Source of the DNA: an uncultured bacterium
GTDB lineage: Bacteria; Verrucomicrobiota; Kiritimatiellia; RFP12; UBA1067
Assembly (NCBI GenBank): GCA_902776615.1
Contig: CACYQU010000006.1
Span: 7,757 to 71,756, forward strand
Length of the DNA stretch: 64,000 bases
Reading direction: 5' to 3'
Translations under genes and position numbers: made by a program
Notes under the pieces: generated by a model
The model's input: only the letters and a program-made list of their open reading frames with translations
Told to the model about the DNA's origin: nothing
Database searches by the model: none
Shown here: one piece after another, positions 1,821 to 45,930 of the stretch
Layout of the letters: each line of letters begins with the position of its first letter
Numbering within the stretch: the stretch's first letter is position 1

Positions 1821-1923
1821 GGCGAGGCGTCACCCCTAGCGACATTGCTACGCAATGCTCGCTGCTCTCGGGGGATACCGCAGAGCCGCAAAGGAACAGA
1901 AACGATTTGAAAGGAATGCTGAA

Positions 1924-4900
1924 ATGACAAAGAAACTGATGATGATGGCTTTTGCGGCGGTTGCCGCGGCGTTCGGCGCATGGGCCGAGACGGAAACGGT
2001 CGGCGGCTACACGTGGAGGTACCAGATCAACGGCGACACGGCGAAGATTTTTTACAAAGGTTATTCGTATCCTGCCATCTCGCCCAAGCCTACTGGTGCC
2101 GTGACGATTCCCTCTACGCTCGGCGGCAAGCCCGTTACGAGCATCGGGGATTCTGCGTTCTTCCGTTGCAGCGGGCTTACGAGCGTTACGATACCTGACA
2201 GCGTGACGAGCATCGGGGATTATGCGTTCGAGGGTTGTAGCGGGCTTACGAGCGTGACGATACCAGACGGTGTGACAAGCATCGGATCTGATGCGTTCTA
2301 CGGCTGCAGCGGTCTTACAAGCGTTACGATACCAGACTCGGTGACTAGTATCGGGAATCATGCGTTCTCCTATTGCCGTAGTCTTACGGGCGTGACGATC
2401 GGCAACGGCGTGACGAACATCGGGTATTCTGCATTCTATGGTTGCAGCGGGCTTACGAGCGTGACGATACCTGACAGTGTTACGAGCATCGGGGAGGCTG
2501 CGTTCTACGATTGCAGCGGACTTACGAGCGTGACGATCGGCAACGACGTGACGAGCATCAGGGATTGGGCATTCCGAGGCTGCAGTGGGCTTACAAGCGT
2601 TACGATACCGAATAGTGTGACGAATATCGGGGAATGTGCGTTCTGCAACTGCAGCGGGCTTACGAGCGTGACGATACCCGACAGCGTGACGAGCATCGGG
2701 TCTTCGGCGTTCCCTGGCTGCAGTGGGCTTACGAGCGTGACGATCCCTGACAGCGTTACGAGCATCGGGGAATGTGCGTTCTCTGGTTGCAGCGGGCTGA
2801 CGAGCGTGACGATACCTGACAGCGTGACGCGCATCGGGGATTATGCGTTCTCCGACTGCAGCGGGCTGACGAGCGTGACGATACCGCAATACGTGTGCAC
2901 CAATAGATTGTCATCAGTGTTTTCATCTGCATATCAGTCCATCACCAATGTCGTCATTTCGGATAGCGTGACGAGCATCGGGGATAATTCGTTCTACGGT
3001 TGCAGCGGGCTTACGAGCGTGACGATACCCGACAGCGTGACGAATATCGGGGAATGTGCGTTCTACAACTGCAGCGGGCTTACGAGCGTGACGATACCCG
3101 GCAGCGTGACGAGCATCGGGGCTGTTGCGTTCTGGGACTGCAGCGGTCTTACAAGCGTGACGATAGGCAACGGCGTGACGACCATCGGGGTTCAGGCGTT
3201 CGACGGTTGCAGCGGGCTTACGAGCGTGACGATCCCGGACAGCGTGACGAGCATCGGGTCTTCTGCGTTCACGGGTTGTAGCGATTCGCTTTTCGACACG
3301 ACCACAATACCCGGCGTGGTGTTGGTGGATGGTTGGGCGGTTGGAAACACGGGCTCGCTTTCCGGAGACTTGAATCTGGCTGGTGCTCGCGGCATCGGAG
3401 GCTCTGCGTTCTTGTTGTGCAGCGGTCTTACGAGCGTGATGATCGGCAACGGCGTGACGAGCATAGGGGAAGGGGCGTTCTCCGATTGCTATGGGCTTAC
3501 GAGTGTGACGATTTCCGACAGCGTGACGAGCATCGGGAAAGGGGCGTTCTCCGTTTGCGACGGGCTTAGGAGCGTGCATATAACCGATCTTGCGAAATGG
3601 TGTAACAGTTCGTTTGGCGCATGCTTCTGGAATGCATCATACAGTCTCTATCTTAATGACGAGAAGATTTCGGATTTGATTATCCCCGACAGCGTGACGA
3701 ATATCAGCAATTCTGCGTTCTCTGGTTGCAGTGGGCTTACGAGCGTGACGATGCCAGACAGCGTGACGAGCATCGGGGAACGGGCGTTCTACAACTGCAT
3801 AGGGCTTACTAGTCTGACAATCGGCAACGGCGTGATGAGCATCGGGCGGGGTGCGTTCTCCGGCTGCGGCGGGCTTGCGAGCGTGGCGATCCCGAACAGC
3901 GTGACGAGCGTCGGGGATGGGGCGTTCGATGGTTGCAGTAGGCTGACGAGCGTGACGATACCTGACAGCGTGACGAGCATCGGGTCTGAGGCGTTCTACG
4001 GCTGCAGCGGGCTTACGAGCGTGACGATACCGGACAGCGTGACGAGCATCGGGAATTATGCGTTCCAAGATTGCAGTGGGCTGACGAGTGTGACGATACC
4101 GGACAGTGTGACGAACATCGGGAATTATGCGTTCTACAACTGTACGAATGTGACGGATGTTGCTATTCCGGGGTGGAAATGCAGCATACCATTTGGTGCA
4201 GTGACAAATCTTATTATCAGCGATGGCACTGCGAGTATCCGCGATTCTGCGTTCTTTGGCTGCAGCGGGCTTACGAGCGTGACGATACCCGACAGCGTGA
4301 CGAGCATCGGGGATTATGCGTTCCGCGGCTGCAGCGGGCTGACGAGCGTGACGATTGGCAACGGCGTGACGAGTATCGGGTATGGTGCGTTCGATGGTTG
4401 CAGTAGGCTGACGAGCGTGACGATACCTGACAGCGTGACGAGCATAGGGTATTCTGCGTTCTCCGGTTGCGTGAACGTTATAAGTCTGACTGCGCCATAT
4501 TTTCCGTCAGGCTTGAATAAAAGCCAACCAATGAGCGTGACGATACCTGACGGCGTGACGAGCATCGGGGAAGAGGCGTTCTACGGCTGTAGCGGGCTTA
4601 CGAGCGTGACGATACCCGACAGCGTGACGAGCATCGGGGGATATGCGTTCTGCGATTGCAGTGGGCTGACAAGCGTGACGATCCCGAACAGCGTGACGAG
4701 CATTGGGTTAGAGGCGTTCTACGGCTGCAGCGGGCTGACGAGCGTGACGATACCGCAATATGTTCTTGACAGGCAAATCCATAATGTGTTTTCACCATGC
4801 TCGTCAATTACAAATGTCGCGTATTCTTCGGTCATAACAAATATCGGGGATTATGCGTTCTACGGCTGCAGCGGGCTTACGAGCGTGACGATACCTGACG

Positions 4901-7900
4901 GCGTGACGAGTATCGGGGGTTCTGCGTTTTACGGTTGCAGCGGGCTTAGGAGTGTGCATATTACTGATCTTTCGAAATGGTGCAGCAACTCGTTTGGTGG
5001 ATGCTTCGGGAATGCATACAATCTCTATCTTAATAACGAGAAGATTACGGATTTGATTATTCCTGCCAGCGTGACGAGCATCGGGTCTTCTGCGTTCTCC
5101 GGCTGCAGCGGGCTGACGAGCGTGACGATACCTGACAGCGTTACGAGCATCGGGTCTGGTGCGTTCGAGGGTTGTAGCGCTTCGCTTTATGACACTGCGA
5201 CGATTCCAGGAGTAAGGCTGGTGGATGGTTGGGCGGTTGGGAACACGGGCTCGCTTTCCGGAGACTTGAATCTGACTGGTGCTCGCGGTATTGGGTCTTC
5301 GGCGTTCTCCGGCTGCAGCGGTCTTACGAGCGTGACGATCCCGAACAGCGTGAATAGTATCGGTGCTGAAGCATTCAGTGGTTGCACTGGATTGACAAGT
5401 GTGGAAATACCATCTTCGGTAAGGAGGATTGGAGAGCATGCGTTCTACAATTGCAAGTCAATAACGAGTCTGAAATTGCCTGATGCCGCGTCTGATATAT
5501 CGTTCTCGGCGTTCGAGGGTTGCACGGGACTGTCCGGCGAGGACATTCCAGATCTTGGTGTTCCAGCGGCAAAGGAATGGGGGTTTGTCTCTTACGGCGG
5601 CGAGGCTCTGATTGTCGGAAGGGATATGGAGGAGACTCCGCATCCGGTGTTCCTGCCTGATCCTTGGATTGAAGTCGAGGCTGGTTATGCCTTTATATAT
5701 GCAAATTATTCAAGCGCGATTCCATCTGACACAAGCGGCGCGGTTTCCGTTCCGTCGATGGTCGGCGGGCTTCCCGTCACGACAATCGGAAAGTATGCGT
5801 TCTGCACTTGTAGCAATGTGACTGCGATAACCATTCCCGCAACCGTCAAACACATCGCAGCCGGAGCATTCAACGCTTGTAGAAGACTCGAAAAGATATC
5901 TGTTGCGGCGGGTAACTCTTCGTACAAGACGGTGAACGGACTGCTTCTTACCGCCGACGGAAAGCGCGTTGTGGCTGCTCCGCGCAAGATCGCGTCGGCT
6001 ACGATTCCGGCTGGTGTCGAATACATCGACGATTACGCATTATTCGGCTGTGAAAATATCACGGAAATCTCGATTCCGGAAGGAGTTGTCGGCGTCGGGG
6101 CAAAGGCATTCCTTGGGTGCAGATCGCTCTCGCGCGTATCACTGCCGGCATCCTTTAACGGATTCTTCTGTATGTATCAGTATTACGGGTTTTGGGAGAC
6201 TGAAAACAGCGACTGGGATTACGAAACAGACGAGCCTGAAGAATACAGATGGACATGGATTGGCGATGAATGGTATGAAGAGCTTGAGATGGAGGATTTC
6301 TACTCTTATCATCCATGGCAATGGGGAGAGGTCGTCAGACATACGGGTTACATCGCATCGTTCGGGTGTTGTGAATCATTGCAATCTATCGAAGTGGCGA
6401 CCGGAAACAAGATATATAAATCCGTTGACGGCGTTCTTCTACGCAGAGATGATGACGCGGTTGTGTGCTGTCCTGGCGGGTTGAAGTCTGCAACCATTGC
6501 GCCTTCAACGACAAAGATTGGCGAGTATGCTTTTTACGGGAACATGGCCTTGAAGGAAGTGGTGTTTGGCGGAAATGTAAAGTATGTGGACAAGGAAGCG
6601 TTTTGCGGATGCATATCGTTGACAAATATAGATTTCGGTGTGTGCGTATCGGATAGCCGCATAGTGTTTTACGGGGGTGCTCATTTCGCATGGTGCACAT
6701 CGCTTGAGAGCATCGCTCTGCCGGATCGAATGCTGAACTATCCAGAATCCATGTCAAGCGGAGGGAAGGGATCTGAGAATGAGACATTTGACGATATGCT
6801 ATATGCGGCAATCCCAGATTGGATGCTCGGACATTGCCATAAACTTAGAAACATCATTCTGCCTGATACGATCAAAGGAATTGGCGAATGTGCGTTCGCG
6901 TCATGCTGGGAACTGGAGAGAATTGCCATACCAGCCAGTGTCGAATGGTTGTCCGAAGGCGCATTTCAATGGTGCGAAAGACTGCGGAACGTTGAATTCA
7001 AAGGGAAATCGGCTGAAACAGATCTAGATGTTTTTTTAGAAGAGCGGTTTGGCTTTGATTCTAAGAGCTGGGAATTCGAAATGATTTTCCGGCTAACACC
7101 TTGGTTGTTGTCTTTTACTCCATTTGAGCTTTATGTCGAGAACGGCATTCTTCTCGGATTTCAGGGATGCTGCCCAGAAGAGTTGACGATACCAGACGGA
7201 GTGACGGAGATCGGCGACAGTGCTTTCGATTACGATGAGAATTTGTCAGTCATTGGACTGAAGAGGATTACGCTTCCCGCTGGACTCAAAAGAGTCGGGA
7301 AATGGGCGTTTTTTTGGGCTGGGCTGGAGGAAGTCGTGCTTCCGGAGGGTGTGACGGAACTTGGTGAGGGCGCGTTTCTGTCCTGCACAAACATGACCTC
7401 GCTGTCGCTGCCGCAGTCGTTGTCTGTTTTGAGCCCGTCGGCATTCCGCAACTGCGGTTCGCTCCGCGAAATCGTCATTCCCAAGAACATTGCGGAGTTT
7501 GGCGAGCGGGCGCTTGCGTATTGTGTCGGACTCGAAAAGATCGTATTTAAGGGTAATGCGCCCAAATACGGAGAAAACGCCTTCCTGAAAATCAATCCTA
7601 ATTGCACGGTATATGTCGTGCCCGGTTCAACTGGGTGGGATGTCTCAATTCCAGGAGAATGGAACAGAATGCGAATCGAGTATGCAGCAAACGGCGGAGA
7701 TGAGTCAGGATACGGTGGCGGTGCGACACCGGAAGAGCCGACGCCGGAGCCAGGGCCTGAACCCACGCCAATGCCAACACCGACTCCAACACCGACGCCG
7801 ACACCTGAGCCGACGCCAACTCCGGAACCGACTCCGACACCTGAGCCGACGCATGAGCCGACGCCGGAACCTACTCCGACGCCGGAACCTACTCCAACAC

Positions 7901-8511
7901 CAACACCGACTCCAACACCTGAGCCGACGCCTGAGCCGGTGGTTGTGCCCCAACTGCACGAAGACGCGGTTGTAGAGGGTGCGGCGCCGACGGTGGCGAG
8001 CGAGTATAATGGCTACTTGTACGACGAGAAGAGCGGGGCTGTGAAGGGCACGATTCAGGTCAAGATCGGCAAGCCCGGCAAGAAGGACGGCAAGGCCATG
8101 GTTAAGGATGGCCCGACGGAGATCGATCTTGTCGGCAAGGGCGCGGAGGATTGCAGTGTGATGCTCGGCGCTTACGGAATCATCGGCTACTACGGTGCGT
8201 ACGTCATCGACGGTGCGCGTAACATATTCTCGTCGAAGGACAAGGGTGATCTTGCGGATGCGAAAGACGCTCTCGACAAATGCCTCGGGTCGAGGATGGT
8301 CATTTGGGACGGCGGATCCGTCAGTGTCAGCATTGCGGCGAAGGGCAAGGTCAAGGTAAGCGGAACGCTCGCCAGCGGCGCTAAAGTCTCCGCAACCGCT
8401 GTGCTCCTGGTAGGCGAGGAGTGGAACTGCGTCTCTGTTGCCGCGCCGAAGGCGAATCTCTCGTTCGTGCTGTGGCTTTCGCGCGACGGCAAAACCACTA
8501 TATCTGCCTAA
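1924..8511 (+). CDS. giant secreted leucine-rich-repeat (BspA-like, LRR_5 type) surface protein with Pro/Thr-rich linker
   Basis: Start chosen at [21 protein letters not shown] signal peptide. Dozens of ~23-aa repeats [19 protein letters not shown] follow, then divergent LRR_5-like repeats, a PT-rich linker and a beta-rich C-terminal region. Confidence 0.9.
2150..5430 (+). repeat. intragenic array of ~69-nt (23-aa) LRR units, including a ~1.9-kb segmental duplication
   Basis: GGCTGCAGCGGGCTTACGAGCGTGACGATACC-type units recur throughout. Longer blocks are duplicated: [23 protein letters not shown] at ~3310-3400 and ~5220-5300, and [15 protein letters not shown] at ~3570 and ~4950. Confidence 0.85.
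7729..7950 (+). repeat. low-complexity Pro/Thr/Glu linker coding repeat (PTPEPTPTP...)
   Basis: Translation [69 protein letters not shown]; 6-nt periodic CCGAC(G/T)/CCAAC(A) DNA. Confidence 0.9.
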
Positions 8512-8951: not shown

Positions 8952-8999
8952 GTTTGTGTTTGCTTCACCGCCGCACTCGCGGCAGATGAAGATGTTTAT

Positions 9000-9230
9000 G
9001 GTGGCAGGTCTGGCCGCCAGAGGTGGCAGGTCTAGCGTCCAGAGGTGGCAGGTCTAGCCGCTGGAGGTGGCAGGTCTGGCCGCCAGAGGTGGCAGGTCTG
9101 ACGGCTAGAGGTGGCAGGTCTGGCGCGCAGAGGTGGCAGGTCTAGCCCCCAGAGGTGGCAGGTCTGGCCGCCAGAGGTGGCAGGTCTGGCCGCCAAGGGT
9201 GGCAGGTCTAGCGGCCAGAGGTGGCAGGGG
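9000..9230. repeat. tandem array 1: 22-bp unit x 10 plus one partial copy
   Basis: Invariant 12-mer GGTGGCAGGTCT starts at 9000, 9022, 9044, 9066, 9088, 9110, 9132, 9154, 9176 and 9198 (partial at 9220), an exact 22-nt phase. It is separated by degenerate 10-mers (GGCCGCCAGA, AGCGTCCAGA, AGCCGCTGGA, GACGGCTAGA ...). Confidence 0.95.
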
Positions 9231-9427
9231 AAGGCCCTACACCTGGGAGAGCGCATAACTGGGGGCGCGGGCGTCCCGCCCGCGACTAAGGAAGGTTTTA
9301 GATCTTCCATCTGAGCGGGCGAGACGCCCACTCTCCCAGTGATGCGCCCCTCCCAATCCGATGTCGACGCGGCGGCATCGCAATTTGCCCTTAAGGGGGA
9401 CTTCCATTACCCGTAAGGGGTAGTGCA

Positions 9428-9559
9428 CTTCACCCTTAGGGTAAGTTCACTTCACCCTTAGGGTAAATTCGCTTCACCCTTAGGGTAAGTTCACTTCACC
9501 CTTAGGGTGAGTTCGCTTCACCCTTAGGGTGAGTTAAAGAACCCCTTAGGGTAAATTCG
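9428..9559. repeat. tandem array 2: a different 22-bp unit x 5 plus one degenerate copy
   Basis: CTTCACCCTTAGGGT(A/G)A(G/A)TT(C/A)(A/G) starts at 9428, 9450, 9472, 9494 and 9516, with a degenerate copy at 9538. Each unit contains the 11-bp odd-centred palindrome ACCCTTAGGGT. Confidence 0.95.
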
Positions 9560-9631
9560 AGCCCCCCTTGGTCTGCCGTGGAGACTGCCCCGCCTGCATG
9601 TCTCGAACACCACATCCCGTGGCATTTTGGT

Positions 9632-9663
9632 AAAAAAAGCGGGGACTGTCCCCGGTTGTTTTG
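9632..9663. terminator. bidirectional intrinsic terminator inside the gene-free segment
   Basis: A7 tract (9632-9638), stem CGGGGA / TCCCCG (9640-9645 / 9649-9654) with loop CTG, then GTTGTTTTG. Confidence 0.55.
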
Positions 9664-9940
9664 AGCGCAATGACGCATTTTGGCAACAGCGCTATCGTAG
9701 ACGCACTCAACCTAAAAACGGCAGTAGGGGACGAATTTTTTCTCACACCCTTTAGGTGATGTTTTGCTTCAAGTAAATTTGATGCATAGTTAGTTGTATT
9801 CGCAAGATTCCGAGCATTCTCTGCGCTTTCGGACTCTCTGCGTGAGACATTCAACTGACGAATCTAGGTTAAACTGCCTGAATCCCGAAGAAACGATGCA
9901 CTTTCGAAAAAAGGCAGTGACCGCCAGGCGGATACAGCAG

Positions 9941-10125
9941 TATCCGCCAAACGGACACACGTGTATACGCCAAACGGTCACACGTGTATCCGCCAAACGG
10001 ACACACGTGTATCCGCCAAACGGACACACGTGTATCCGCCAAACGGTCACACGTGTATCCGCCAAACGGACACACGTGTATCCGCCAAACGGACACACGT
10101 GTATCCGCCAGGCGGACACAAACAG
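9941..10125. repeat. tandem array 3: 23-bp unit x 7 plus one degenerate copy
   Basis: TATCCGCCAAACGG(A/T)CACACGTG starts at 9941, 9964, 9987, 10010, 10033, 10056, 10079 and 10102. Each junction forms the 8-bp palindrome ACACGTGT. The array is bracketed by CCGCCAGGCGG at 9921-9931 and 10105-10115. Confidence 0.95.
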
Positions 10126-10343
10126 AAAACAACAATAATATAAACATAAACCCGAACAGAAAGGAATCGGGGTCGAGTTTGATTCGAAGAGATCCTGGCT
10201 CTGGAGAGCCGAAGATGCTAGATCAGCATATTGACGCGATGAGCGTCGATGAGCTCACAAAACCTGAGCGGAGGGGGAGCGGAGGGGGACCCCGCCGGGC
10301 CCTTGAAAAACGGGCTTTCGCGGCACCCCGGTGTAATTCATGG

Positions 10344-12856: not shown

Positions 12857-12887
12857 CGCGAGGACGGAGGTTCTCCAAAAAAAGTGT

Positions 12888-12910
12888 GAACCTTTTTCGC
12901 CTAATCCGTT
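12888..12910 (+). promoter_or_regulatory. candidate ECF-type (GAAC ... CGTT) promoter of the sigma-fusion gene
   Basis: GAAC at 12888-12891 and CGTT at 12907-12910, 15 nt apart, about 35 nt upstream of the start codon. The spacing is slightly short of the usual 16-17. Confidence 0.25.
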
Positions 12911-12943
12911 ATTATCATATATGGGAACTAGGAATCTCCCATC

Positions 12944-14845
12944 TTGATGACAGTAGCGGAAGAGATCAAATCTGATCGCGAAACAGGCGCAAAAAAGCTT
13001 GAAAGCGAGTACAAAGCGGGGCTTATGGCTCTTGCCAGGTGCTTTTGTGCCGATGAATCCGACGCCGAGGAACTTGTCTACAGAACGTTTTCGAATGTCA
13101 TCGCCGGGATTGACGGCTATACGGAACAGTCGGCGTTCTTCGGGTGGATGTGCAAGATTCTCGTGAACTGCCATGCGAACGACGTCCGCCGCAAGTCCAA
13201 CGAAAACGAGGTAAGCGTGGGCGACGTCCCCGACTCGCCCGGCAGCGACGCTTCGGATGTTTTCAACTCAGTGGATGCGAACATTTTGCGCGAGGCGGTC
13301 GAGCAACTGCCTGCCCACCTGCGCGAGACGGTCGTGTTGCATTATTTCATGGATCAGCCACTCGTAAAGGTGGCCAAATTGCTGGCGCTGCCTGTCGGGA
13401 CGGTGAAGTCGCGACTCCACTATGCGCGTGTGATTCTCGGGCAGCGCCTTGGCGCAACGCTCAAGAAGCCCAAGGTTTTCGCGTCGCTATTGCTTGTCGC
13501 CGGGCTTGCGATAGGTTTGGTCGTTGGGCTTAATTTCGGCGAAAGGGCGTCTTTTAAGGCGACTGGCGACAAGGCGGCGACTGCGGCGGCAAGCGTTCGC
13601 AAAGGCGATGAATTCCTCGCGCAAGGCTCGGCCTATCTTGAGTCGAACGGCACGCAGGCCATAGTTCTCGACTACTGTGTAAACGCGAAGTCGCGCCTAG
13701 TCATCGATTTCCAGCTAATGTCCACCAATTCGTCGTGCCGCAAGGTATTCGGCGCGTTTTCGGACGGCGACAACAGCTACCGCGCGAGTCTCTGGTACAA
13801 CGGGCCGCGAAACATAGAGTTCAATATCGCAGGCAGCTGGCAGTCAACGCGCATGCGCGGCGACCTGGGTCGACATGTGGCGATGATCGACATTCCCAAT
13901 CGATGGCTCGCTTACGATGGCTGGCGTCAGCGTTTCAACGACGAAACGCCTGCATGGGGCGATGGCGCTTCGTATCCGCTGGCGCTTTTCGGCGAAAACA
14001 GAAGCGAAACGCCTACAAACATCCAAATGTGTGCGGCGGCGCGTGTATACGCGCTCGACATATACGAGAACGACGAACTCGTGCGCAAGTACCGCCCGGC
14101 GATCAAAGGCGGGCGCGTGGGGCTTTACGATTCCAAGACGGGGCGGTTTGCGGTTTCGCAGTCGCCGTTCGCGTATGGAGGCGACATACGGAAAATGCCC
14201 GACGATCCGAATTTGCAGTCCGACAGGACGCAGACGATCGCGCTGGACTACGCGATAAACGCCGATACGCGGCTTGAGGTTGACTACGCTCTCATGGACT
14301 GGACGCGCGGCGGTTCGACGCTTTTCGGAACGACCAACCCCGATCCTGACGAAGCCTTCCGCTGCATGTACTGGGTTTCGGGCGGCGGCAACATGCAGTT
14401 CAATGTCAACGGCTCGTGGATACCGAGTTTCAACGGCGCGGGCGTCGGGCGGCATGTGGCGGTTTTGGACTTCCCGAAAATGAGGGTCGAATACATGACG
14501 GGCGAAACGCCCGCGTTTGTCCGCGCGATACCGTCCGAAAGCGCGTTTACCGCTGCGCGCAAGCCTCTGCCGATAATGTTCTTCGGGGAGAATTGGGGCG
14601 ATCCGCTGTGCATCAACAACCACAACAACCGCACTGTTTCGATGAAGCTTTACGGCGTGAGGGCGTATGAGAAGGGCAGGCTTGTGCGCGACTACCGCCC
14701 GGCGCTGCGCGACGGCGTGCCGTGCCTGCACGACGAGATCACGGGCGCGTTCTGCACCGACCCGCGCGACCGGGCGCCGTTTCTGGCGTATAGCGGACAG
14801 ATCCCGCTGGACAAGATATTCGGGCTCATGATGGTTTTCAAGTAA
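12944..14845 (+). CDS. ECF (sigma-70 family) sigma factor fused via one TM helix to a duplicated extracytoplasmic beta-rich module
   Basis: Region 2 (ELVYRTFSNVIAGIDGY....FFGWMCKILVNCHANDVRRK), region 4 HTH (LPAHLRETVVLHYFMDQPLVKVAKLLALPVGTVKSRLHYAR) and a TM helix (VFASLLLVAGLAIGLVVGLNF). Two ~190-aa repeats follow, each ending (R/K).Y..(D/R).YE...LVR.YRPA...G....D..TG.F. The start may be ATG 12947. Confidence 0.85.
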   Translation: MMTVAEEIKSDRETGAKKLESEYKAGLMALARCFCADESDAEELVYRTFSNVIAGIDGYTEQSAFFGWMCKILVNCHANDVRRKSNENEVSVGDVPDSPGSDASDVFNSVDANILREAVEQLPAHLRETVVLHYFMDQPLVKVAKLLALPVGTVKSRLHYARVILGQRLGATLKKPKVFASLLLVAGLAIGLVVGLNFGERASFKATGDKAATAAASVRKGDEFLAQGSAYLESNGTQAIVLDYCVNAKSRLVIDFQLMSTNSSCRKVFGAFSDGDNSYRASLWYNGPRNIEFNIAGSWQSTRMRGDLGRHVAMIDIPNRWLAYDGWRQRFNDETPAWGDGASYPLALFGENRSETPTNIQMCAAARVYALDIYENDELVRKYRPAIKGGRVGLYDSKTGRFAVSQSPFAYGGDIRKMPDDPNLQSDRTQTIALDYAINADTRLEVDYALMDWTRGGSTLFGTTNPDPDEAFRCMYWVSGGGNMQFNVNGSWIPSFNGAGVGRHVAVLDFPKMRVEYMTGETPAFVRAIPSESAFTAARKPLPIMFFGENWGDPLCINNHNNRTVSMKLYGVRAYEKGRLVRDYRPALRDGVPCLHDEITGAFCTDPRDRAPFLAYSGQIPLDKIFGLMMVFK

Positions 14846-14872
14846 CACAAAAGAACAACAAAGGAGCAAAAC

Positions 14873-17716
14873 ATGCAACACAGGATAGGAATGAGGAGAA
14901 AGGGCGCGACATTGTTCGCGGCCGCATTCGCCACAGTCTGCTCGTTTGCAGGCGTGAAATACTGGGACAACCCGGAGTTCAAGGCCTTCGACGTGGGCGA
15001 CTACGTGCAGGACGGCCTCGTGCTCAACTACGACGGCATCCGCAACGCCGGCCCGACCGCCGACCATGACCCGAGCGCGACGACGTGGAAGAACCTCGGC
15101 TCCGGCGGCTCGGCATACGACATGACGAAGAAAGGCTCTCCCGTCTCATCCTACTGGACTGGTAACGGTTTCTATTTCGACAGCAAGACATGGTTCGTCA
15201 CGCCGAGCAAGGTGGCGCTTCCGAATGCATACGAAATTGAGACGCTCGTCGATGCGGAATACGCGAAGCAAACCGACATTGGATACATATTTTTCTCGAG
15301 CACCATATACCCACGTGCGGACGACGGAGGCTGGGCGTGGAGTTCGATTGCCATCAGAAAGAACGGCACCACATATAATCAGACGATCAACGGTAAGCAG
15401 TATTCGGCTAAATCCTGTTTTAACACTACTTCCGCCAACTCCGCGTACCGTCCATCTCTTATGGACACCTCGTACCAATACCTCACCGCACTCGCGAACA
15501 AAACCTATGTCAGTTTCTTCACGGGCGTGGAAGAAACTACCGACGTTCCCGGTCGCATCGGTCTCGCATCTGGCAAGACCGCACTTGGCTCGACATCCCT
15601 CTATTTTTACCTCGGCGGGCACAATACGAACGGCGGCGGCGAGACGTCCACCGGCGAGGGGCTCACCGGCACGATCCGCAACTTCCGCTACTACTCCGCG
15701 CCGCTTTCCCGCGAGCATCGCGTCTGGAACCGCGTGGTGGACGAGGCCCGCTACTTCCATCGTCGCGGTGCAATCCCCGTGACGAACGTCGTCGTCGCCG
15801 TCTCTGGCATCGTCGGCATCGCCGACGACCACTTCGCCATCGACGAGGATGGCTACACCTTCACCGCGCCCACCTCCCGCACCGTCGAGGGCAAGCGCTA
15901 CGCGCTCGGCGGCTACACGCTCGAAACGTGGAACGGCTCTGCATGGGTGGCGGATGGAGAAGGAACGCATACTGACAACGCGGTCGCGATCTCCGATGCG
16001 TCGGTGCTCGTCCGCATCACATGGCAGTATTCGCGCCCGGCCGGCGAGGGCCAGCTTGCGCACTACGACGTGAGCGACTACGTGACGGACGGGCTCATGC
16101 TCTTCTACGATGGCATCCGCAACCAAGGCGCAAACGCGCCACACGCCTACGACGCCACGACCTGGGTCAATCTCGGCAATGGTAGCGGCGACAGCCAGGA
16201 CTGGACGCTCGCAATCAAGCACAAGGTGACAAGCGGTGCCATAGGCTATTGGGCGGACGACGGCTACGAGTTCAAGGGCTTCAGTGATTTCCAGAAGACG
16301 GGCAACAGTTTCACCATCCCCGTCACGCACACGATCCAGACATTGATCGACGCTTCAATAGATGAACAGTATTGGACAAGCGCCCAGGCGTATGTGTATG
16401 CGACGGCGTGGGACAAGTCGTCTCTTGCGTTGAGAACCAAAGACGACAATCCCAAAGCGAATTCCTTCTACTGGGTCACGCAAAGCGACGGCTCGCGCAC
16501 CTACATGCTGAACAGCAGTGGCCGATATGATTACGCAACCGCCATTCAAGATGGCGATGCGAAAACGGCTGCGTTCTTCGCCGGCGTGACGCCCCCGGCG
16601 TCCGGCGGGCTTGCCGATGGATTCAAACAGTATGACTCGGCACTCACTTCCGCATCAGTGGCCAACATCTTCCTTGGCGGATACAATTCCGACAGCCATA
16701 TGTTTACCGGCAAGTTCAAGTTCTTCCGATATTACCCGAACAAGGCGCTATCCCCAACCGAACTTGCCAAGAACCGCAAAGTCGACGAATACCGCTACTT
16801 CGGACGCTACGTCGTCACGAACGTCCTCGTGCAATCGACCTACTCCTACCTCGAAGGCTACGACAAGAGCGGCCCCTACGAGGTGGTTGACTCCTACACC
16901 TTCACCGCGCCGGAGAGCGTGACGGCGGCGAACGGCATCACCTACGCCTGCGACGGCTACACCGTCGAGACGCAGGATGGTATCGGCTGGGCGGCGCTTA
17001 CTTCCGGCACCGGCAATTCCTACCTCTACAACACCTCCGCCGGAACCGTCCGCCTCACCTGGAAGTGGAAAGCTACTAAGGGTGTGCGCACTGCTGCGGA
17101 TTACTCGCTGGACGATCTCTCACAGGCGGGTCTTGCGCTCCACTACGACGGCCAGCTAAACCAGGGCGTCGGTGTCGCCCGCTCCACGACCTCGACGAAG
17201 TGGATCAACCTCGGCTCGCGCCCGGGCATGGACCTCAGCCGCGCCACAGCGGGAAGCGACACCTCAAAGCATGGCCACTGGGGCGACAACGGCTATGTAT
17301 TCACCGGGCTTGCGCAGTTCAACAGCGCCGCCGGGCTTCAGTGGGCGACAACCTTCTCCGCACAGGCGCTCGTAGATGCGAAGCACTCCGACAACACGCA
17401 CAAGGACGGCAACTACATCGCCGCAACTACATGGAAGATGTTCGGCATGCAGATCTACGGCGCGAATAGTGTCGGGCGCTTCAATGTGCAGGGCACGTCC
17501 GATATCGACAAGTGCCCGCATTTTGAGACCGCAACCGGCATTGACTACATGACCGCCATCCACGACGCCGAGACGAAAACCGCGCTTGCCTTCCAAGGCA
17601 CGAAAGCTCCGACAGGCGGCAGCGCGGCGGACGGCTATATGCACTTCAACACCTTCAACGGCATTGAGAACAACCAGTTCCGTCTCGGCGGCTGGGGCGG
17701 CGGGACCGCGTGCTGA
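14873..17716 (+). CDS. secreted triple LamG-like (concanavalin-A-type lectin) repeat protein, N-terminal 947 codons (interrupted by a frameshift)
   Basis: AAGGAG RBS and a signal-like N-terminus. Three copies of (Y/L)...GL.L.YDG..N.G......T.W.NLG...D......W...G(Y/F).F.G are each followed by an ...RYF linker and a ~85-aa beta module (VTNV.V...Y.F.AP....G..Y...GYT.E......W......). Confidence 0.85.
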   Translation: MQHRIGMRRKGATLFAAAFATVCSFAGVKYWDNPEFKAFDVGDYVQDGLVLNYDGIRNAGPTADHDPSATTWKNLGSGGSAYDMTKKGSPVSSYWTGNGFYFDSKTWFVTPSKVALPNAYEIETLVDAEYAKQTDIGYIFFSSTIYPRADDGGWAWSSIAIRKNGTTYNQTINGKQYSAKSCFNTTSANSAYRPSLMDTSYQYLTALANKTYVSFFTGVEETTDVPGRIGLASGKTALGSTSLYFYLGGHNTNGGGETSTGEGLTGTIRNFRYYSAPLSREHRVWNRVVDEARYFHRRGAIPVTNVVVAVSGIVGIADDHFAIDEDGYTFTAPTSRTVEGKRYALGGYTLETWNGSAWVADGEGTHTDNAVAISDASVLVRITWQYSRPAGEGQLAHYDVSDYVTDGLMLFYDGIRNQGANAPHAYDATTWVNLGNGSGDSQDWTLAIKHKVTSGAIGYWADDGYEFKGFSDFQKTGNSFTIPVTHTIQTLIDASIDEQYWTSAQAYVYATAWDKSSLALRTKDDNPKANSFYWVTQSDGSRTYMLNSSGRYDYATAIQDGDAKTAAFFAGVTPPASGGLADGFKQYDSALTSASVANIFLGGYNSDSHMFTGKFKFFRYYPNKALSPTELAKNRKVDEYRYFGRYVVTNVLVQSTYSYLEGYDKSGPYEVVDSYTFTAPESVTAANGITYACDGYTVETQDGIGWAALTSGTGNSYLYNTSAGTVRLTWKWKATKGVRTAADYSLDDLSQAGLALHYDGQLNQGVGVARSTTSTKWINLGSRPGMDLSRATAGSDTSKHGHWGDNGYVFTGLAQFNSAAGLQWATTFSAQALVDAKHSDNTHKDGNYIAATTWKMFGMQIYGANSVGRFNVQGTSDIDKCPHFETATGIDYMTAIHDAETKTALAFQGTKAPTGGSAADGYMHFNTFNGIENNQFRLGGWGGGTAC

Positions 17717-18045
17717 CCGAGGAGGAACTGATCCGCAACCGCAATGTCGACGCGGTGCGCTACTTCGGCGAGCTGGCTGTGACGAATGTAGTGGTGTCGC
17801 TCAACGGCGTCGAGACCGCCTGCAAGGTTGAAGGTTCATACACCTTCGACGCATCCGGAGAGACTGTCGGCGGCAAGAGAGTCGTCGGTTATTACACAGA
17901 GGAGCTTGGCGCCAACGGCGAGTGGACTAACAAGAAGTGGAATAACGGGACTGAATACACCTATACCGAAGCGACCGCCAATGGCAAGACGATCCGTCTT
18001 ACCTGGAGCGGCCCGCGTCCAGGCATGATGATTATCGTTTGGTAA
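17710..18045 (+). CDS. C-terminal 111 codons of the same LamG protein in the -1 frame
   Basis: LTEEELIRNRNVDAVRYFGELAVTNVVVSL...TIRLTWSGPRPGMMIIVW completes the third repeat exactly as in repeats 1 and 2. Adding one G to the GGG run at 17702-17704 restores one frame (..LGGWGGGDRVLTEEEL..). Confidence 0.8.
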   Translation: MLTEEELIRNRNVDAVRYFGELAVTNVVVSLNGVETACKVEGSYTFDASGETVGGKRVVGYYTEELGANGEWTNKKWNNGTEYTYTEATANGKTIRLTWSGPRPGMMIIVW

Positions 18046-30451: not shown

Positions 30452-30841
30452 CTAAAGCCGATTCACCTGCTTTTCAGTACCCGTACATAAGACGTTCTCC
30501 TTCGCCGTCTTGACACTGGCGGTGAGGAGCTTGATGAGTTCGGTGCAATCGGCGCAAAGGGAATCAAAGGCAGGCGACGGCTCGACAAGTTCACTGTCGC
30601 GGAGAAGCTCAAGCCAGTATTCGGTCTCGGCAGCTTCCTTGAGCGCGATCTGGAGTTTGGATGCAAAATCTGCCTTGCTTTGCGCATAGCGACTCTCGGC
30701 GATGTTCGCGCCGATTGAGGTTCCTGCCCGCAGCATTTGCTTTGCAATGACGGACTCCTTGCGCTCGCGCAGGTGTTTGTAGAGACGAACGATGCGGAGG
30801 GCAAAGGCCTTTGACTTCGTAAGCAAGATGCTTTCTTTCAT
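30452..30841 (-). CDS. four-helix-bundle protein (23S rRNA intervening-sequence protein / Avd-like family)
   Basis: KSKAFALRIVRLYKHL........AKQMLRAGTSIGANIAES......KADF..KLQIALKEA.ETEYWLELL is the family signature. Confidence 0.85.
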   Translation of the reverse strand: MKESILLTKSKAFALRIVRLYKHLRERKESVIAKQMLRAGTSIGANIAESRYAQSKADFASKLQIALKEAAETEYWLELLRDSELVEPSPAFDSLCADCTELIKLLTASVKTAKENVLCTGTEKQVNRL

Positions 30842-30900
30842 GGTGTGTACTTTTCTGCTTGTCGGTTCAGGTTACAGTTTATAGTGAACAACGAATAGTT

Positions 30901-30975
30901 TCCAAAATAGGGAATAGGTCATTGACGGTCCATTCACCACCTATTCACTATTCACTATCACCTATTCCCTATTTT
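30901..30975 (-). terminator. ssrA terminator hairpin (15-bp perfect stem)
   Basis: AAAATAGGGAATAGG (30904-30918) and CCTATTCCCTATTTT (30961-30975) are exact reverse complements. On the minus strand the stem ends in a U4 run. Confidence 0.5.
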
Positions 30976-31324
30976 GGAGGTGAGGGGAGTCGAACCCCTG
31001 TCCGAAACGGCATCACCCGAGCTTCTACGCGTGTATTGCGCCATTGATCTCGGACGCGGTATGCCGACGCACGGGCTTATCCGCATCCATCCGTTCGATT
31101 CGGCACCCTTAAGCGAGCGAGCGGAGCCCCCCTAAGCGTGGCCTGCTAGATGATGCCTAGGCGCTCAGCAGACATCGGCGCTTCGACACGGCGGCCAAAT
31201 TTAGGCGGCCATTTTGTAGCTGTTGTTCGCAGTTACTTGGTGTTCCCGTTTTTTAACGTGGCCAACGAGAATCCACGACGCGCTACCCGACCTCAACTCG
31301 TCCCGTCGAAACCGGATCACCCCC
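30975..31324 (-). ncRNA. ssrA: tmRNA (transfer-messenger RNA)
   Basis: The minus strand starts GGGGGTGATCCGGTTTCGACGGG and ends GGTTCGACTCCCCTCACCTCC-A. The acceptor has G1-C72 pairing and a G3:U70 wobble. Tag ORF GCG AAC AAC AGC TAC AAA ATG GCC GCC TAA encodes ANNSYKMAA. CCA is not encoded. Confidence 0.9.
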
Positions 31325-40006: not shown

Positions 40007-40627
40007 CTAGTTTTTCAGCAGCTCGCGGTGTATGGCGATTGCGACTGCTTCGGCACGGTTCGCCGCGCCGAGTTTTTCGTATATCTCGTTCAGGTGCTGC
40101 TTGATGCGCGTCTTGGAAAGCCCCAGTTGCCGCGCTATGTCGTCGTTGGAAAGTCCGCGCGTTATCGATTTCAGCACTTCCATCTGGCGAGGCGTGAAAT
40201 CCGGAATCCCGGCTGTGTCGTCAAGCGCCTGGCGTATTTCTGGCGAGAAGTGTGGCATTCCTTCGGCCGTATCGTGTATGGCGGCGACAAGTTCTGCGTT
40301 GGCGATGTTCTTTGTCACCGCGCCTGTCGCGCCGGCCGACACCGCGCGCGAAAGTTCCCTCGATGTCCCGAATGTCGTCAGTATCAGTATCTTCGCGTCA
40401 GGCATTACTTTGCGGATTGCAGCTGTCGCCTCCGCGCCATCCAGATCTGGCATCATGAGATCCATCACGATCACATCCGGCTTGAGACGCAGCGCCGCAT
40501 CTACTGCTTCAGCGCCGCTTTCCGCCGTGCCGCATACGGCCAGGTCTTTTTCCAGATCGAGTATCGCCGCAAGTCCCATCCTCACGATGGAATGATCGTC
40601 GACAATCATCACGCGAATCTTCTTCAT
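40007..40627 (-). CDS. NarL/FixJ-family response regulator (REC + LuxR-type HTH)
   Basis: IRVMIVDDHSIVR...DVIVMDLMMPDLDG..A receiver domain; LTPRQMEVLKSITRGLSNDDIARQLGLSKTRIKQHLNEIYEKLG HTH. Confidence 0.9.
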   Translation of the reverse strand: MKKIRVMIVDDHSIVRMGLAAILDLEKDLAVCGTAESGAEAVDAALRLKPDVIVMDLMMPDLDGAEATAAIRKVMPDAKILILTTFGTSRELSRAVSAGATGAVTKNIANAELVAAIHDTAEGMPHFSPEIRQALDDTAGIPDFTPRQMEVLKSITRGLSNDDIARQLGLSKTRIKQHLNEIYEKLGAANRAEAVAIAIHRELLKN

Positions 40628-42672
40628 AGCGGAATCTCCACAGTCGCGGCGGCGCCGCCGCCTATTTTGCTCTCCAGCTTCAGCGTCCCGTGCAGGCGAC
40701 GCGTCCGCTCCTTTATGCCCTGTAGGCCGAAATGCCCTTGCGACGGGCCTGGACGGCTCTCAACGTCGAATCCGCGTCCGTCGTCCCTGACCACAAAGCG
40801 CAGAAAGCCGTTCTTCAACTCGCCCGCTATGCGTACATTGCGCGCGTTGCCGTGCTTGACCGCGTTCACGCACAGCTCGCGTATGATCGAAAGCACATTG
40901 TGCGCGATGATGTCGGGAATGTGGTGTCGGCTCACGTGAAAGCGTATCGCCACTCCCGCGTCTTGCATGTGTGGACGCACCGTTTTCTCGATCGCGTCCT
41001 GAAGGTCCGGTTCGGCCAGAGTTTCGCTTCTTAGGTCCCGGAGGCAGCGGCGCAACTCTTCCCGGCACGAAAGAAGCGCCTTTTGCGCAGCCGCGATATA
41101 TCCCGCCGCCGCAGTCGCTTCATGCGGCAAAGTACGCTCTGCCGCGTCAATCTGGAACGATACGCCCGTGAGCGTCTGGGCGATTGAATCGTGCAGCTCG
41201 ACGGCGAGTCGCGTGCGTTCCTCGACTCGCAGATCGGCGGCTGCCGACTTCAGTTTCGTCTTGTACAGCTGTCTTCCGCGGCGTTCGACGAGGCGGCGTA
41301 GCGTGTGGTTCCACACAGCCGCAAGCGCAAGAGCCGCCGCGAGCACAAGCACAATCGCGAGCATTCGCCCTACCGTCCACCAAGGTGGGCCGGAGACGAT
41401 GTGCAGATCCGCCGGCGTTCGCGGCACGATGGTGAATCCTGCCGTGCGGGGGAATCCGCGTGAAACATCCGGGCTCGTATTGCGAACGCACGTGCCTGCA
41501 ACTTCCACAAAACTGCCTGGACCGACCGTATCCACATTCGGCGCGATTGCGCCGTAGTCGACGCGTATCAAGTGACCGCCATACTGCATTTCGAACACGT
41601 GCGCGTCCCTGTCCTCTCCGGCGACGCGTCCGCGTATGCACACGGCTCCTCCGCGTGCGCAGATGTCGCGCAAGACAACCTCCATGGCGAACCGTTCCGG
41701 CAGCGGACGCGGCGGATCGTCCGCGAGACGGCTTCCCGGCACGCGGCGGCATATTGCTTTGGCGAGGCTGATGATGAAGAGGTCCGTCACCGGGAATCCC
41801 GCCGCGGCGACGCTTTCGCCGAACTCCATATCGGCGGGCATCCTTAGCTCTGCGCCCACTATCTGCCCGTCGGCCGTCTTCAGCAGCAAGCGCCGAGCGT
41901 CGTCGTACACGGCGATGACATTCCCGACGACGCTTCTCATGCCCATTCGCGAAAGCGCCGACACCGACTTGTAACGCAATCCCTCGAGCGTCTTCTGCGG
42001 ATAGGACGGTATTCGCGGGGCGTCCAGCGGGTCTTCAACAGGCGGCGTTTCCACGATGATGTCATCGACGCTCGCTACCGTGAGCTGAGGCGTCTGGAAC
42101 TTTCTCTTGCCGCCGTCAGGCAGTACGGCCGCAATGCCCTTCGCCGCGACTGACGCACCGAGCAGACGACCGAGCGCCTCGTCGTCGTCCGAACAGACCG
42201 CCGCAAAAAACGGCGTCGAGTCTGTGCGCATGAGGAGGAATCGCCAGGCTGGGTCGATTTCATCGTGGACCACATCAGTCACGATGCCTCGCATGAGGAC
42301 GGTGCGTCCGTCAAAGGATTCGTCGCAGAGCTGTTCGGGGGAAGCCGGTACGGGCGAGGGGACTTCGCCGCGTCCGAGGTGCACCGCGCTTTCCATGAAC
42401 GCGCGCCGCCAGTCGAAGCCGTCCGCGCCGATATGCCCTTGCGCGACAATTCTGTCGCCGGACGCGACATCGAGGGAATTTGTCGCGCGCATGTATCCGT
42501 AGTCTGTGTCGTCCGCGACCCAATAGGAAGTGTGGCGCGCATCCGAGCGAATCACCGCAGTGACGGTGCATGTCACGGAAAAATATTCGCCGTCGTTCGC
42601 CTCACTCCACACGGCCTGTCGGAGCGCGGCGACATTTGCGATCGAAGCGAACAATATTGCTGCTGAAGTCAT
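40624..42672 (-). CDS. sensor histidine kinase (HisKA_3/NarX-DesK type) with ~440-aa N-terminal extracytoplasmic region
   Basis: TM helix WWTVGRMLAIVLVLAAALALAAVW; H-box RLAVELHDSIAQTLTG; HATPase_c (ELCVNAVKHGNA ... DDGRGF ... GLQGIKER); 4-nt overlap with the regulator gene. Confidence 0.85.
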   Translation of the reverse strand: MTSAAILFASIANVAALRQAVWSEANDGEYFSVTCTVTAVIRSDARHTSYWVADDTDYGYMRATNSLDVASGDRIVAQGHIGADGFDWRRAFMESAVHLGRGEVPSPVPASPEQLCDESFDGRTVLMRGIVTDVVHDEIDPAWRFLLMRTDSTPFFAAVCSDDDEALGRLLGASVAAKGIAAVLPDGGKRKFQTPQLTVASVDDIIVETPPVEDPLDAPRIPSYPQKTLEGLRYKSVSALSRMGMRSVVGNVIAVYDDARRLLLKTADGQIVGAELRMPADMEFGESVAAAGFPVTDLFIISLAKAICRRVPGSRLADDPPRPLPERFAMEVVLRDICARGGAVCIRGRVAGEDRDAHVFEMQYGGHLIRVDYGAIAPNVDTVGPGSFVEVAGTCVRNTSPDVSRGFPRTAGFTIVPRTPADLHIVSGPPWWTVGRMLAIVLVLAAALALAAVWNHTLRRLVERRGRQLYKTKLKSAAADLRVEERTRLAVELHDSIAQTLTGVSFQIDAAERTLPHEATAAAGYIAAAQKALLSCREELRRCLRDLRSETLAEPDLQDAIEKTVRPHMQDAGVAIRFHVSRHHIPDIIAHNVLSIIRELCVNAVKHGNARNVRIAGELKNGFLRFVVRDDGRGFDVESRPGPSQGHFGLQGIKERTRRLHGTLKLESKIGGGAAATVEIPL

Positions 42673-42757: not shown

Positions 42758-42819
42758 CTTTGCAGAATCTTACAAGTATTACAAGTACGAAACCAAACGT
42801 TCATACGAAAGGACTCCTA

Positions 42820-45800: not shown

Positions 45801-45930
45801 GTCCATAACCGGCTCGGCGACACTTGACGTGAACGGTCTCCCGGAAGGACGCAGGGCTGTTCTGCATGTCGAAACGAGTGAAATCTGGCTTGAGATTCTT
45901 TCGCCAGGTCTTATGATCATCGTGCGCTGA
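42820..45930 (+). CDS. large secreted beta-helix/LamG-repeat protein
   Basis: Start at MKRHMLATLFAMASLFASAAA signal peptide. Two LamG-like modules each end in ER..CERYLAEKWGL / AR.KVQEYLMYKWFG. The C-terminus ends in SPGLMIIVR. Confidence 0.8.
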   Translation: MKRHMLATLFAMASLFASAAATVINVPANGSLELTSGNNKDNTIIVAAGGATITFANGSGNKTFYPHLVVSGGVVRVSSSGFSRYRFVSGVRAVDGGSLEIVGVSTISIDRKTIPDPTDIMPATGPLCDFDNVSFTSGSGKLAFNYNATVRRLPNCKIVVEPGDSAVPTTVALASTDSNAAAALLDAGSLCLTNFNAIALTANALPDRCNVQVSPGRTFKFDQGNLSADGLTLTPSSGATGLFNIELLGRGATVCFANDGGKNIRCESNITGLGEILFKPNSGTVITRFRGMAYTATDSSSFSIPVDTANEPVPTESWKSKVSHWFDASDESTLVPFSFDPSVWGGNWVSAKNEFDGNQLVIGMKDKVEGSTVSLYNKRLWSAGGRFSASQYHLQVLPYRVKDGLNGKTYLSCGKRGVSSDGAKYDSNGNLISSTENRRLKFWSSTAIDGSTVPSGDYTKISASYAILVFGSQNGGGEAVIGTDGNQVSGNGSFVRQSGIDKAWTTRDGYSMHADGLTVNPKNAKPNGGWQILSIDMSATNTLVNGLGPMDANANETDCGGQNYAEVIFFSEKPTTVERAACERYLAEKWGLESSYAQWDVPYAQLSGSSGTVTLYDDVRTTYDSVEKIAAEGSFSGTVIIPSGKTLVIEKPLPPTEADVSETNRVGWYDPDFSGAVVYDATALGHDDLLYVLYGRTLVDLCTDDNDIWFTSGWRGNSGAVNNFAPSVSRSARGALTTGPKRNWLNFKESYGDSLGNMIRSRKVSSGVNGSMYGMKVRQGFFVVDTSSGGGDIFNTDATFSNGKIKPRTDGSDSSKPIWRDGTVAMSGTWLDTDEINGAERGYNGRAEVLSFATESETLNVGYVANYNGSHAEIVGEFILYSEPLEDAARTKVQEYLMYKWFGDLNGKYADYSGATVTGAGTVKSPTLRNLPKFGNNFTGELTGGSRLEFNLGAEGVADALAIGRALALENGATVTVNVSGKPAAGHYTLLTATSITGSATLDVNGLPEGRRAVLHVETSEIWLEILSPGLMIIVR

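Follow-up and report, generated by a model that had tools for sequence, protein, structure and literature searches.

The DNA analysed here is a 64,000-nucleotide stretch (the window; contig CACYQU010000006.1, positions 7,757 to 71,756 of the forward strand) from an uncultured ruminant-gut Kiritimatiellae bacterium. It carries a gene whose predicted product joins in one chain a sigma factor of the extracytoplasmic function (ECF) type, a membrane anchor and two outward-facing domains of sugar-binding type. ECF sigma factors are usually described as pairs of a sigma and an anti-sigma factor. The open reading frame (ORF) lies on the plus strand and is open from 12944 to 14845, giving 633 codons when counted from a TTG at 12944. 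As this TTG is directly followed by an ATG at 12947, and a database protein with 99% identity (P0001) is 632 amino acids (aa) long, the real start is probably the ATG, and the gene is taken here as 12947-14845 (632 aa). Profile hidden Markov models (HMMs), hydropathy and self-comparison agree with the architecture proposed by an earlier reading made from the letters alone (the sequence-only reading), which was a sigma factor, one transmembrane (TM) helix and a duplicated outer module in a single polypeptide.

The N-terminal part of the protein contains sigma region 2 (aa 22-85, 13007-13198) and sigma region 4 (aa 114-170, 13283-13453), the latter with the recognition helix GTVKSRLHYAR. The NCBIfam model TIGR02937 covered aa 21-167 with 55.5 bits (cut-off 42.9), and both region-4 models of Pfam were above their cut-offs, Sigma70_r4_2 (PF08281) with 34.8 bits against 25.7 and Sigma70_r4 (PF04545) with 25.1 against 24.1. 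Sigma70_r2 (PF04542) scored 20.1 bits, slightly short of its cut-off of 24. A profile built from the sigma domain of the family aligned end to end (positions 4-169) with solved ECF sigma factors, including AlgU-type sigma-H, SigW, SigH, SigL and sigma-E. No sigma-1.1 or sigma-3 region was found in this part of about 175 aa, in which only regions 2 and 4 matched Pfam at E<=1. Judged by these profiles, aa 1-175 are a genuine ECF sigma factor. The sequence-only reading had placed regions 2 and 4 in about the same residues and would have given this up for an N-terminus that failed sigma models; the passing TIGR02937 and region-4 scores and the match to solved ECF structures bear the assignment out.

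A single TM helix (VFASLLLVAGLAIGLVVGLNF, aa 178-198, 13475-13537, hydropathy peak 2.8) follows, and it is the only strongly hydrophobic segment of this kind in the protein, as had been proposed. It contains a GxxxGxxxG motif and begins 6-8 residues past sigma region 4, with intervening residues that begin LKKPK. Because four basic residues (+4) flank the helix on the N-terminal side and the C-terminal side is nearly neutral (about +1), the sigma part should be cytoplasmic and the remainder is predicted to lie outside the cytoplasmic membrane, following the positive-inside rule. Between the helix and the first outer domain is a juxtamembrane linker of 32 aa (aa 199-230, 13538-13633), which is poorly conserved, has an AlphaFold pLDDT of about 40 at its end and is probably disordered. 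The single, type-II-oriented, Gly-rich helix and the unconserved juxtamembrane linker would be indirect features of a candidate substrate of regulated intramembrane proteolysis.

An anti-sigma domain is absent from this arrangement, with just 6-8 residues separating sigma region 4 from the helix and no match to the zinc-finger anti-sigma domain (ZAS, PF13490) at E<=1. No FecR-family Pfam domain was matched in the fusion protein either, and no recognisable anti-sigma gene is located beside it. The upstream neighbour encodes a metallo-beta-lactamase-fold protein and the downstream neighbour a lectin-repeat protein, in agreement with the earlier claim that an adjacent anti-sigma gene is missing.

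The 435 residues after the helix hold two repeats of about 190 aa, at aa 231-415 (13634-14188) and aa 423-620 (14210-14803), which are 33% identical over 198 aa (E=1e-29 for a single comparison), so the duplication outside the membrane seen in the sequence-only reading is real. That reading could not name the domain. No Pfam or NCBIfam model matched outside the sigma part at E<=1, and the repeats do not belong to the curated LamG families (PF13385, PF02210 and PF00054); the fold, on the other hand, can be named. An AlphaFold2 model, built from an alignment of orthologs and of repeat pairs from other proteins, gave two all-beta sandwiches (pLDDT 85.2, pTM 0.76). The best Foldseek matches were laminin LG4-5 pairs, neurexin LNS and Gas6 LG pairs (probability 1.0, E 2e-10 to 1e-7), with sialidase and galectin lectin domains also matched; the TM-scores were low (about 0.29) because two domains were superposed at once. 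Based on the confident model and these matches, the repeats are identified as tandem, divergent LamG/ConA-like lectin domains which form a sequence family of their own. The size of this family was visible only by exhaustive searching, as a HMMER search with the outer module recovered 1,736 cluster representatives at E<=0.001, compared to few matches in a word-indexed protein search. Most proteins with the module are 700-1200 aa long and consist of an N-terminal signal peptide and 3-5 copies in tandem.

The fusion gene is the first of an operon of two. A spacer of 27 nt (14846-14872), carrying the Shine-Dalgarno sequence AAGGAG and conserved in the orthologous loci L001 and L003, separates it from a second plus-strand gene at 14873-18045, which encodes a secreted protein of three units, each made of a ConA-like lectin and a small beta domain. 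Orthologs of this second gene, 1074-1097 aa in length, always follow the sigma gene. In the window a frameshift, located by tblastn, divides it into one ORF of 947 aa (14873-17716) and one of 111 aa (17710-18045). Compared to the orthologs, the sequence near 17692-17704 lacks about 46 nt; the frame changes and the third lectin unit loses its last strands, so that the final domain and the C-terminal tail PGMMIIVW are encoded by the separate 111-aa ORF. The break may reflect either true pseudogenisation or a mistake in the assembly. The family of the second gene comprises over 525 proteins from Kiritimatiellae with lengths of about 1075 aa, and PF13385 (Laminin_G_3) is matched in many of them. 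One unit was modelled by AlphaFold with a pLDDT of 87, and Foldseek placed it with ConA-like lectin modules, such as the sialidase CBM40 and the domain with which a GH43 arabinanase binds. No PDB entry was matched when the downstream protein was searched by sequence. The description of the next gene, 27 nt downstream, as a lectin-type surface protein is therefore supported by PF13385 in its family and by the modelled fold. The further claim that it shares the tail of the sigma protein needs to be divided, as ORF 14873-17716 has no tail, and the tail is found past the frameshift on the 111-aa ORF. Homology between the outer module of the sigma protein and the downstream protein was not detected by BLASTP or hhalign, and the resemblance is lectin-like at the fold level only.

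The tail of the sigma protein is FGLMMVFK (14819-14842), a short hydrophobic run ending in K. The motif often starts with G/P, followed by 5-7 hydrophobic residues and R/K at the C-terminus, and it closes 82/107 proteins of the sigma family, 107/147 proteins with the free module and 103/120 proteins of the downstream family. It is also present in most of the proteins P0014-P0392. Other tails in the window are PGMMIIVW of the 111-aa ORF (18022-18042) and PGLMIIVR at 45907-45927. The latter closes a protein of 1056 aa without a Pfam match (42760-45930); the neighbouring genes at 40007-42672 on the minus strand, for a LuxR-type response regulator and a histidine kinase, are divergent from it. No sorting-signal model in NCBIfam matched the tail, which looks like a candidate for an undescribed sorting or docking signal.

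The fusion could in principle have resulted from an assembly or annotation error or from a decaying gene, with the sigma factor and the outer protein being separate products. The sequence-only reading had itself raised this, in case orthologs turned out to be encoded as two ORFs. The ORF is, however, equally continuous in ten full-length orthologs (621-673 aa, 56-99% identical), which come from independent ENA, NCBI and Logan assemblies and contain neither an internal start nor an internal signal peptide, and more than 100 members of the wider family are also continuous. As the same single ORF is conserved across assemblies, an assembly artefact is very unlikely on sequence grounds. The cassette of the sigma gene and the 1074-1097-aa gene was kept in three genomic contexts, two long contigs differing from the window. 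All parts of the protein are under purifying selection. In the most distant orthologs, the identity was 72-74% in the distal lectin domain, the best conserved part of the protein, 55% in the sigma domain, 19-24% in the TM helix and 9-22% in the linker. The higher conservation of the distal repeat compared to the sigma domain indicates that the outer part is under strong selection. Beyond the nearest relatives, the TM helix showed 19-52% and the linker 9-28% identity, whereas the linker was 97-100% identical in the nearest two (P0001 and P0002). There are two observations that fit separate products. The neighbouring gene in the window is frameshifted, and at one related locus (L044) the sigma factor, TM helix and linker form their own 276-aa ORF (from 6001), with a 4-nt overlap with a separate protein that has a signal peptide and the tail. 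The artefact is already contradicted by the conserved single ORFs and is barely tenable.

The gene is one of a large family. In a scan with one genome per species, 61 loci were found, with up to 12 in one metagenome-assembled genome (MAG) and 7 in another. All were in ruminant-gut Kiritimatiellae MAGs, some of them labelled 'Verrucomicrobia', except for L065, a fragmentary match of 43 residues on a contig labelled Mogibacterium, and as far as sampled the family is restricted to this group. In each complete member, sigma region 4 is immediately followed by a TM helix (aa ~172-206). The sigma domains are 50-68% identical, whereas the outer parts are wholly different, including the module of the window gene, LamG, BspA-type leucine-rich repeats (LRR), FGE-sulfatase, DUF2341 and others, with total lengths of 284-1330 aa. 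The BspA-type repeat, which is the outer domain of many of these paralogous fusions, also makes up nearly all of a 2218-aa protein elsewhere in the window (1855-8511, 17 LRR_5 stretches).

The next gene at the family loci is usually less than 50 nt away and starts with a signal peptide. When ten of these downstream genes were scanned, GH5 was found in three, and GH28 with a GDSL esterase, GH13 and GH39 were also present; the others were FGE-sulfatase-like (two), a metallophosphoesterase with a beta-propeller (one) or had no match (one). We also looked for a conserved partner gene, either an anti-sigma factor or a protease, near 63 related loci, where only the sigma gene and its antisense shadow ORFs recurred. 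As no other gene recurs at these loci, they hold no hidden anti-sigma or protease partner in cis.

Upstream of the window gene, a predicted ECF-type promoter TGAACCTTTT-N9-CCGTTATTAT is located at 12887-12915, with the -35-like element TGAACCTTTT at 12887-12896 and the -10-like element CCGTTATTAT at 12906-12915, both on the plus strand. It fits the ECF pattern of an AAC-containing -35 and a CGT-containing -10, which as a rule precede the gene of the sigma factor itself. The core GAACC-N14-CGTT (12888-12910), taken as a pattern alone, is no commoner in the window than chance would allow (5 occurrences against 3.7 expected). The promoter is, however, the sole conserved island in the otherwise diverged upstream regions of the orthologs, and the -35-like element was kept in L001, L003 and L005 despite diverged flanks. 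A regular expression of the type TGAAC..CGTTA matched the upstream regions of just 4 close relatives among the paralogs. With a Gibbs sampler, the -10-like block, ATCCG(G/C/T)TAT(T/A)AT, was found in ~50/54 non-redundant upstream regions of the family, 20-62 nt before the start codon and including the element in the window. The sampler also found a -35 block at a fixed distance from it, which falls into three classes: TGAACC, CCAA(C/T)N and ACTATCC.

One residue of the sigma-4.2 recognition helix tracks the -35 class across the 63 related loci. Helices of the type GTVK-S-RLH were paired with GAAC[CG] in 15 cases and with CCAA[CT] in 1, while those of the type GTVx-W-RLH were paired with CCAA[CT] in 17 and with GAAC[CG] in none; the S of the window gene is paired with GAACC. 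This covariation is the best available evidence for autoregulation, and it indicates that each sigma factor would read the promoter of its own gene, as a positive autoregulator. The GAAC..CGTT motif that the sequence-only reading had pointed out is thus an ECF-type promoter, based on its conservation in orthologs and its covariation with the sigma-4 helix. The same reading had suggested that such promoters be sought elsewhere in the window. Only the gene's own was found, with none before the 1056-aa protein at 42760-45930, and no further promoter of the class of this sigma factor is present in the 64 kb. A scan for sigma-70-type promoters and terminators around the operon gave nothing informative.

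From these features we propose that the protein is a self-contained, single-polypeptide transmembrane signalling sigma factor, in which glycan sensing would lead to proteolytic release and self-activation, and we give this reading a probability of about 60%. Its basis in observation is the architecture, the lectin fold, the lack of an anti-sigma domain, the operon structure and the cognate promoter. Of its parts, proteolysis is far less certain than the architecture and the autoregulation. In the resting state, the membrane tether alone would keep the sigma factor from RNA polymerase and DNA. A glycan, or a glycan-bound partner, could then bind the lectin pair, with the strongly conserved distal domain predicted as the likeliest binding site, and the linker would thereby be exposed to a periplasmic site-1 protease. 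A site-2 intramembrane protease of the RseP type would then cut the Gly-rich helix, and the freed sigma factor of ~20 kDa could switch on its own operon. Release by proteolysis is suggested by the likeness to the fused ECF sigma factors IutY, ECF52, ECF48 and ECF53. A glycan would be the most plausible input because of the gene neighbourhoods of the paralogs, which contain secreted glycoside hydrolases.

Several points weigh against this proposal. No protease gene is located nearby in the window or recurs at related loci, and the cleavage, the ligand and the protease are all putative. In a protein with no anti-sigma domain, only the tether could inhibit the sigma factor, and that tethering would be sufficient is an assumption. 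The modelled fold is lectin-like, which does not imply glycan binding, as LamG domains also bind proteins. This type of promoter appears in the window only at the gene's own operon, so that the regulon there would consist of two genes, one of which is frameshifted. In addition, the two deepest orthologs, P0012 and P0013 (the latter at L039), do not have the C-terminal tail.

The lack of an anti-sigma domain, and hence of a classical off-state, could also mean that the sigma factor is never released. It would then work like ToxR or CadC, recruiting RNA polymerase to the membrane and acting chiefly on its own operon, which would be held there by coupled transcription, translation and insertion, with the outer domains modulating activity through dimerisation or conformation. 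The GxxxGxxxG in the TM helix is a helix-helix packing motif and was kept in close orthologs, although the TM sequence is poorly conserved beyond the nearest relatives, as given above. Having its own promoter as the only cognate one in the window would also suit a sigma factor confined to its own operon, and both products of this operon are membrane or secreted proteins. However, the 6-8 residues between sigma region 4 and the helix would leave little room for a holoenzyme of ~400 kDa and promoter DNA, and the fused ECF sigma factors for which data exist become active by truncation or proteolysis (PMC8999054, PMC5826349). Activity from the membrane is therefore somewhat unlikely in our view.

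A feature of the paralogs that bears on the origin of the outer part is a nested start. In 46/54 paralogs, a typical signal-peptide-like stretch with a basic n-region, an Ala-rich core and AxA begins at an in-frame Met located 60-90 residues past the TM helix (examples among L005-L062 are L013, L015, L026 and L056). GGAG, GAGG or AGGA was found 4-17 nt upstream of this Met in 41/46, compared to 7% at other in-frame Met codons (binomial p ~7e-42). Although the residues encoded at the motif vary (QGE, KEK, EEQ, SGE and others), the purines themselves are retained, a sign of selection on the nucleotide sequence. The long paralog ORFs therefore resemble an in-frame fusion of a sigma-TM-linker cassette with an entire gene for a secreted protein, and this nested gene is predicted to be still translated independently, probably giving a free copy of the outer domain. 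In one case (P0312), the cassette is fused to a homolog of the separate downstream gene of the window. The nested start is absent from the window gene, which has lost it together with its orthologs, the two deepest of which keep a degenerate relic.

It is possible, though doubtful, that this arrangement is itself the signalling device. One gene would yield a tethered and a free copy of the same surface protein, the sigma factor, having no anti-sigma factor, would be restrained by the tether alone, and the outer part would be captured cargo. Signalling could then occur by comparing or coupling the two copies, or through a pathway for which the shared tail would be an undescribed sorting signal. 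The window gene, without a nested start, would in this case be derived by its loss.

A related, and quite unlikely, explanation is that the outer part is not a ligand sensor. It would instead be a copy of secreted cargo that reports on a sorting or export pathway recognising the tail, and engagement or processing of the tail would free the sigma factor, coupling the synthesis of tail proteins to the capacity for placing them. The distribution of the tail agrees with this, being found on most members of the sigma family, including minimal ones of 284-366 aa, on most free lectin-repeat proteins and on the second product of the operon. Likewise, the outer module recurs 3-5 times in hundreds of secreted proteins, the sigma modules are fused to varied cargo types, including the type of the downstream gene (P0312), and the same cargo could also be made free in most paralogs, where a ribosome-binding site, ATG and signal peptide are retained internally. 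However, machinery that would sort such a tail is not known and did not emerge from the NCBIfam models, P0012 and P0013 lack the tail while the rest of the protein is kept, and ligand binding would account no less well for the strong conservation of lectin domain 2.

The reading we prefer, of glycan sensing followed by proteolytic release, has partial counterparts in known systems. The sequence-only reading had considered a tethered sigma factor to be unusual, and this has to be qualified, as membrane-tethered ECF sigma factors with sensor extensions are already known in ECF52, ECF48, ECF53 and IutY (PMC8999054, PMC5826349); what does stand apart is that no anti-sigma domain lies between sigma region 4 and the membrane. 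Among these, IutY is freed by Prc and RseP, and excision by proteolysis has been put forward for ECF52, ECF48 and ECF53 (PMC8999054, PMC5826349). The closest in layout is ECF52 (SCO4117 of Streptomyces coelicolor), which also has an N-terminal ECF sigma factor, one or more membrane helices, a low-complexity linker and an outward carbohydrate-binding-type domain in one chain, and which has been proposed both to be a positive autoregulator and to become active when excised by proteolysis (PMC5826349, PMC8999054). In one ECF52 species the outer module is a separate ORF, as it is at L044 here. However, ECF52 has a ZAS domain between the sigma factor and the membrane, where the window protein has 6-8 residues and no ZAS, and it is confined to Actinobacteria, whereas the window gene comes from another phylum. 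The window protein also has a LamG pair, lectin-type by fold, in place of the CBM of ECF52, and a conserved C-terminal tail.

In IutY of Pseudomonas putida, the sigma factor is likewise part of one chain with a single-pass membrane segment and a periplasmic domain (PMC5411451, PMC8999054), and release by the site-1 protease Prc and by RseP has been demonstrated. IutY differs in having a FecI-like sigma factor with a complete FecR-like anti-sigma factor and in taking signals from a TonB-dependent outer-membrane receptor. The window protein has no FecR domain, there is no receptor gene at the locus, and no neighbour recurs at the 63 loci.

Many paralogs with differing outer domains of carbohydrate-binding type, located beside genes for secreted glycoside hydrolases, are also a feature of SigI/RsgI in Clostridium thermocellum and of the ECF pairs of polysaccharide utilisation loci (PULs) in Bacteroides. 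The family described here shares with them the number of paralogs per genome, the swapped outer domains, the adjoining glycoside hydrolases and a linker between membrane and sensor that is disordered there and probably also here. The difference is that their sensor is on a separate, sigma-binding anti-sigma factor, whereas here the sensor and the sigma factor are one chain, and SigI is not of the ECF type. Regulators that are tethered to or associated with the membrane also include ToxR and CadC, which are set from outside, and pro-sigma-K, which is set by intramembrane proteolysis through SpoIVFB. ToxR and CadC are, however, winged-helix activators with longer cytoplasmic linkers and not polymerase subunits, and pro-sigma-K has an N-terminal pro-sequence and no extracytoplasmic sensor.

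An ECF sigma factor with a membrane-spanning sensor extension is therefore known, and what is new at this locus is the lack of an anti-sigma domain, the phylum, the LamG pair and the tail. At the level of the family, exchangeable sensors, nested starts and an association with glycoside hydrolase operons are new as well. We found no paper describing ECF fusions in Kiritimatiellae in the literature searched, and the large family to which the window gene belongs is undescribed there.

The window has two further features outside the operon. A 1.2-kb intergenic stretch (8956-10150) contains three different tandem arrays of partly palindromic 22-23-nt units, at 9000-9228 (10 copies), 9418-9559 (5-6 copies) and 9940-10120 (8 copies). 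On the minus strand, at 30518-31324, two overlapping tmRNA candidates with different tag peptides were predicted by ARAGORN, of which only the one ending ...ANNSYKMAA looks conventional.

To our knowledge, little is known about gene regulation in Kiritimatiellae, an uncultured group that degrades fibre and mucin. The family appears to be their counterpart of the polysaccharide-sensing sigma/anti-sigma pairs, and it seems to be the principal regulatory device with which those of the ruminant gut respond to glycans. A tethered family without anti-sigma factors would test if sequestration at the membrane alone can gate a subunit of the polymerase. The covariation between promoters and sigma region 4 provides a ready map from each sigma factor to its glycoside hydrolase operon, and the modular layout, with a sigma-TM cassette, a swappable sensor and insulated -35 classes, is attractive for the construction of orthogonal transmembrane sensors.

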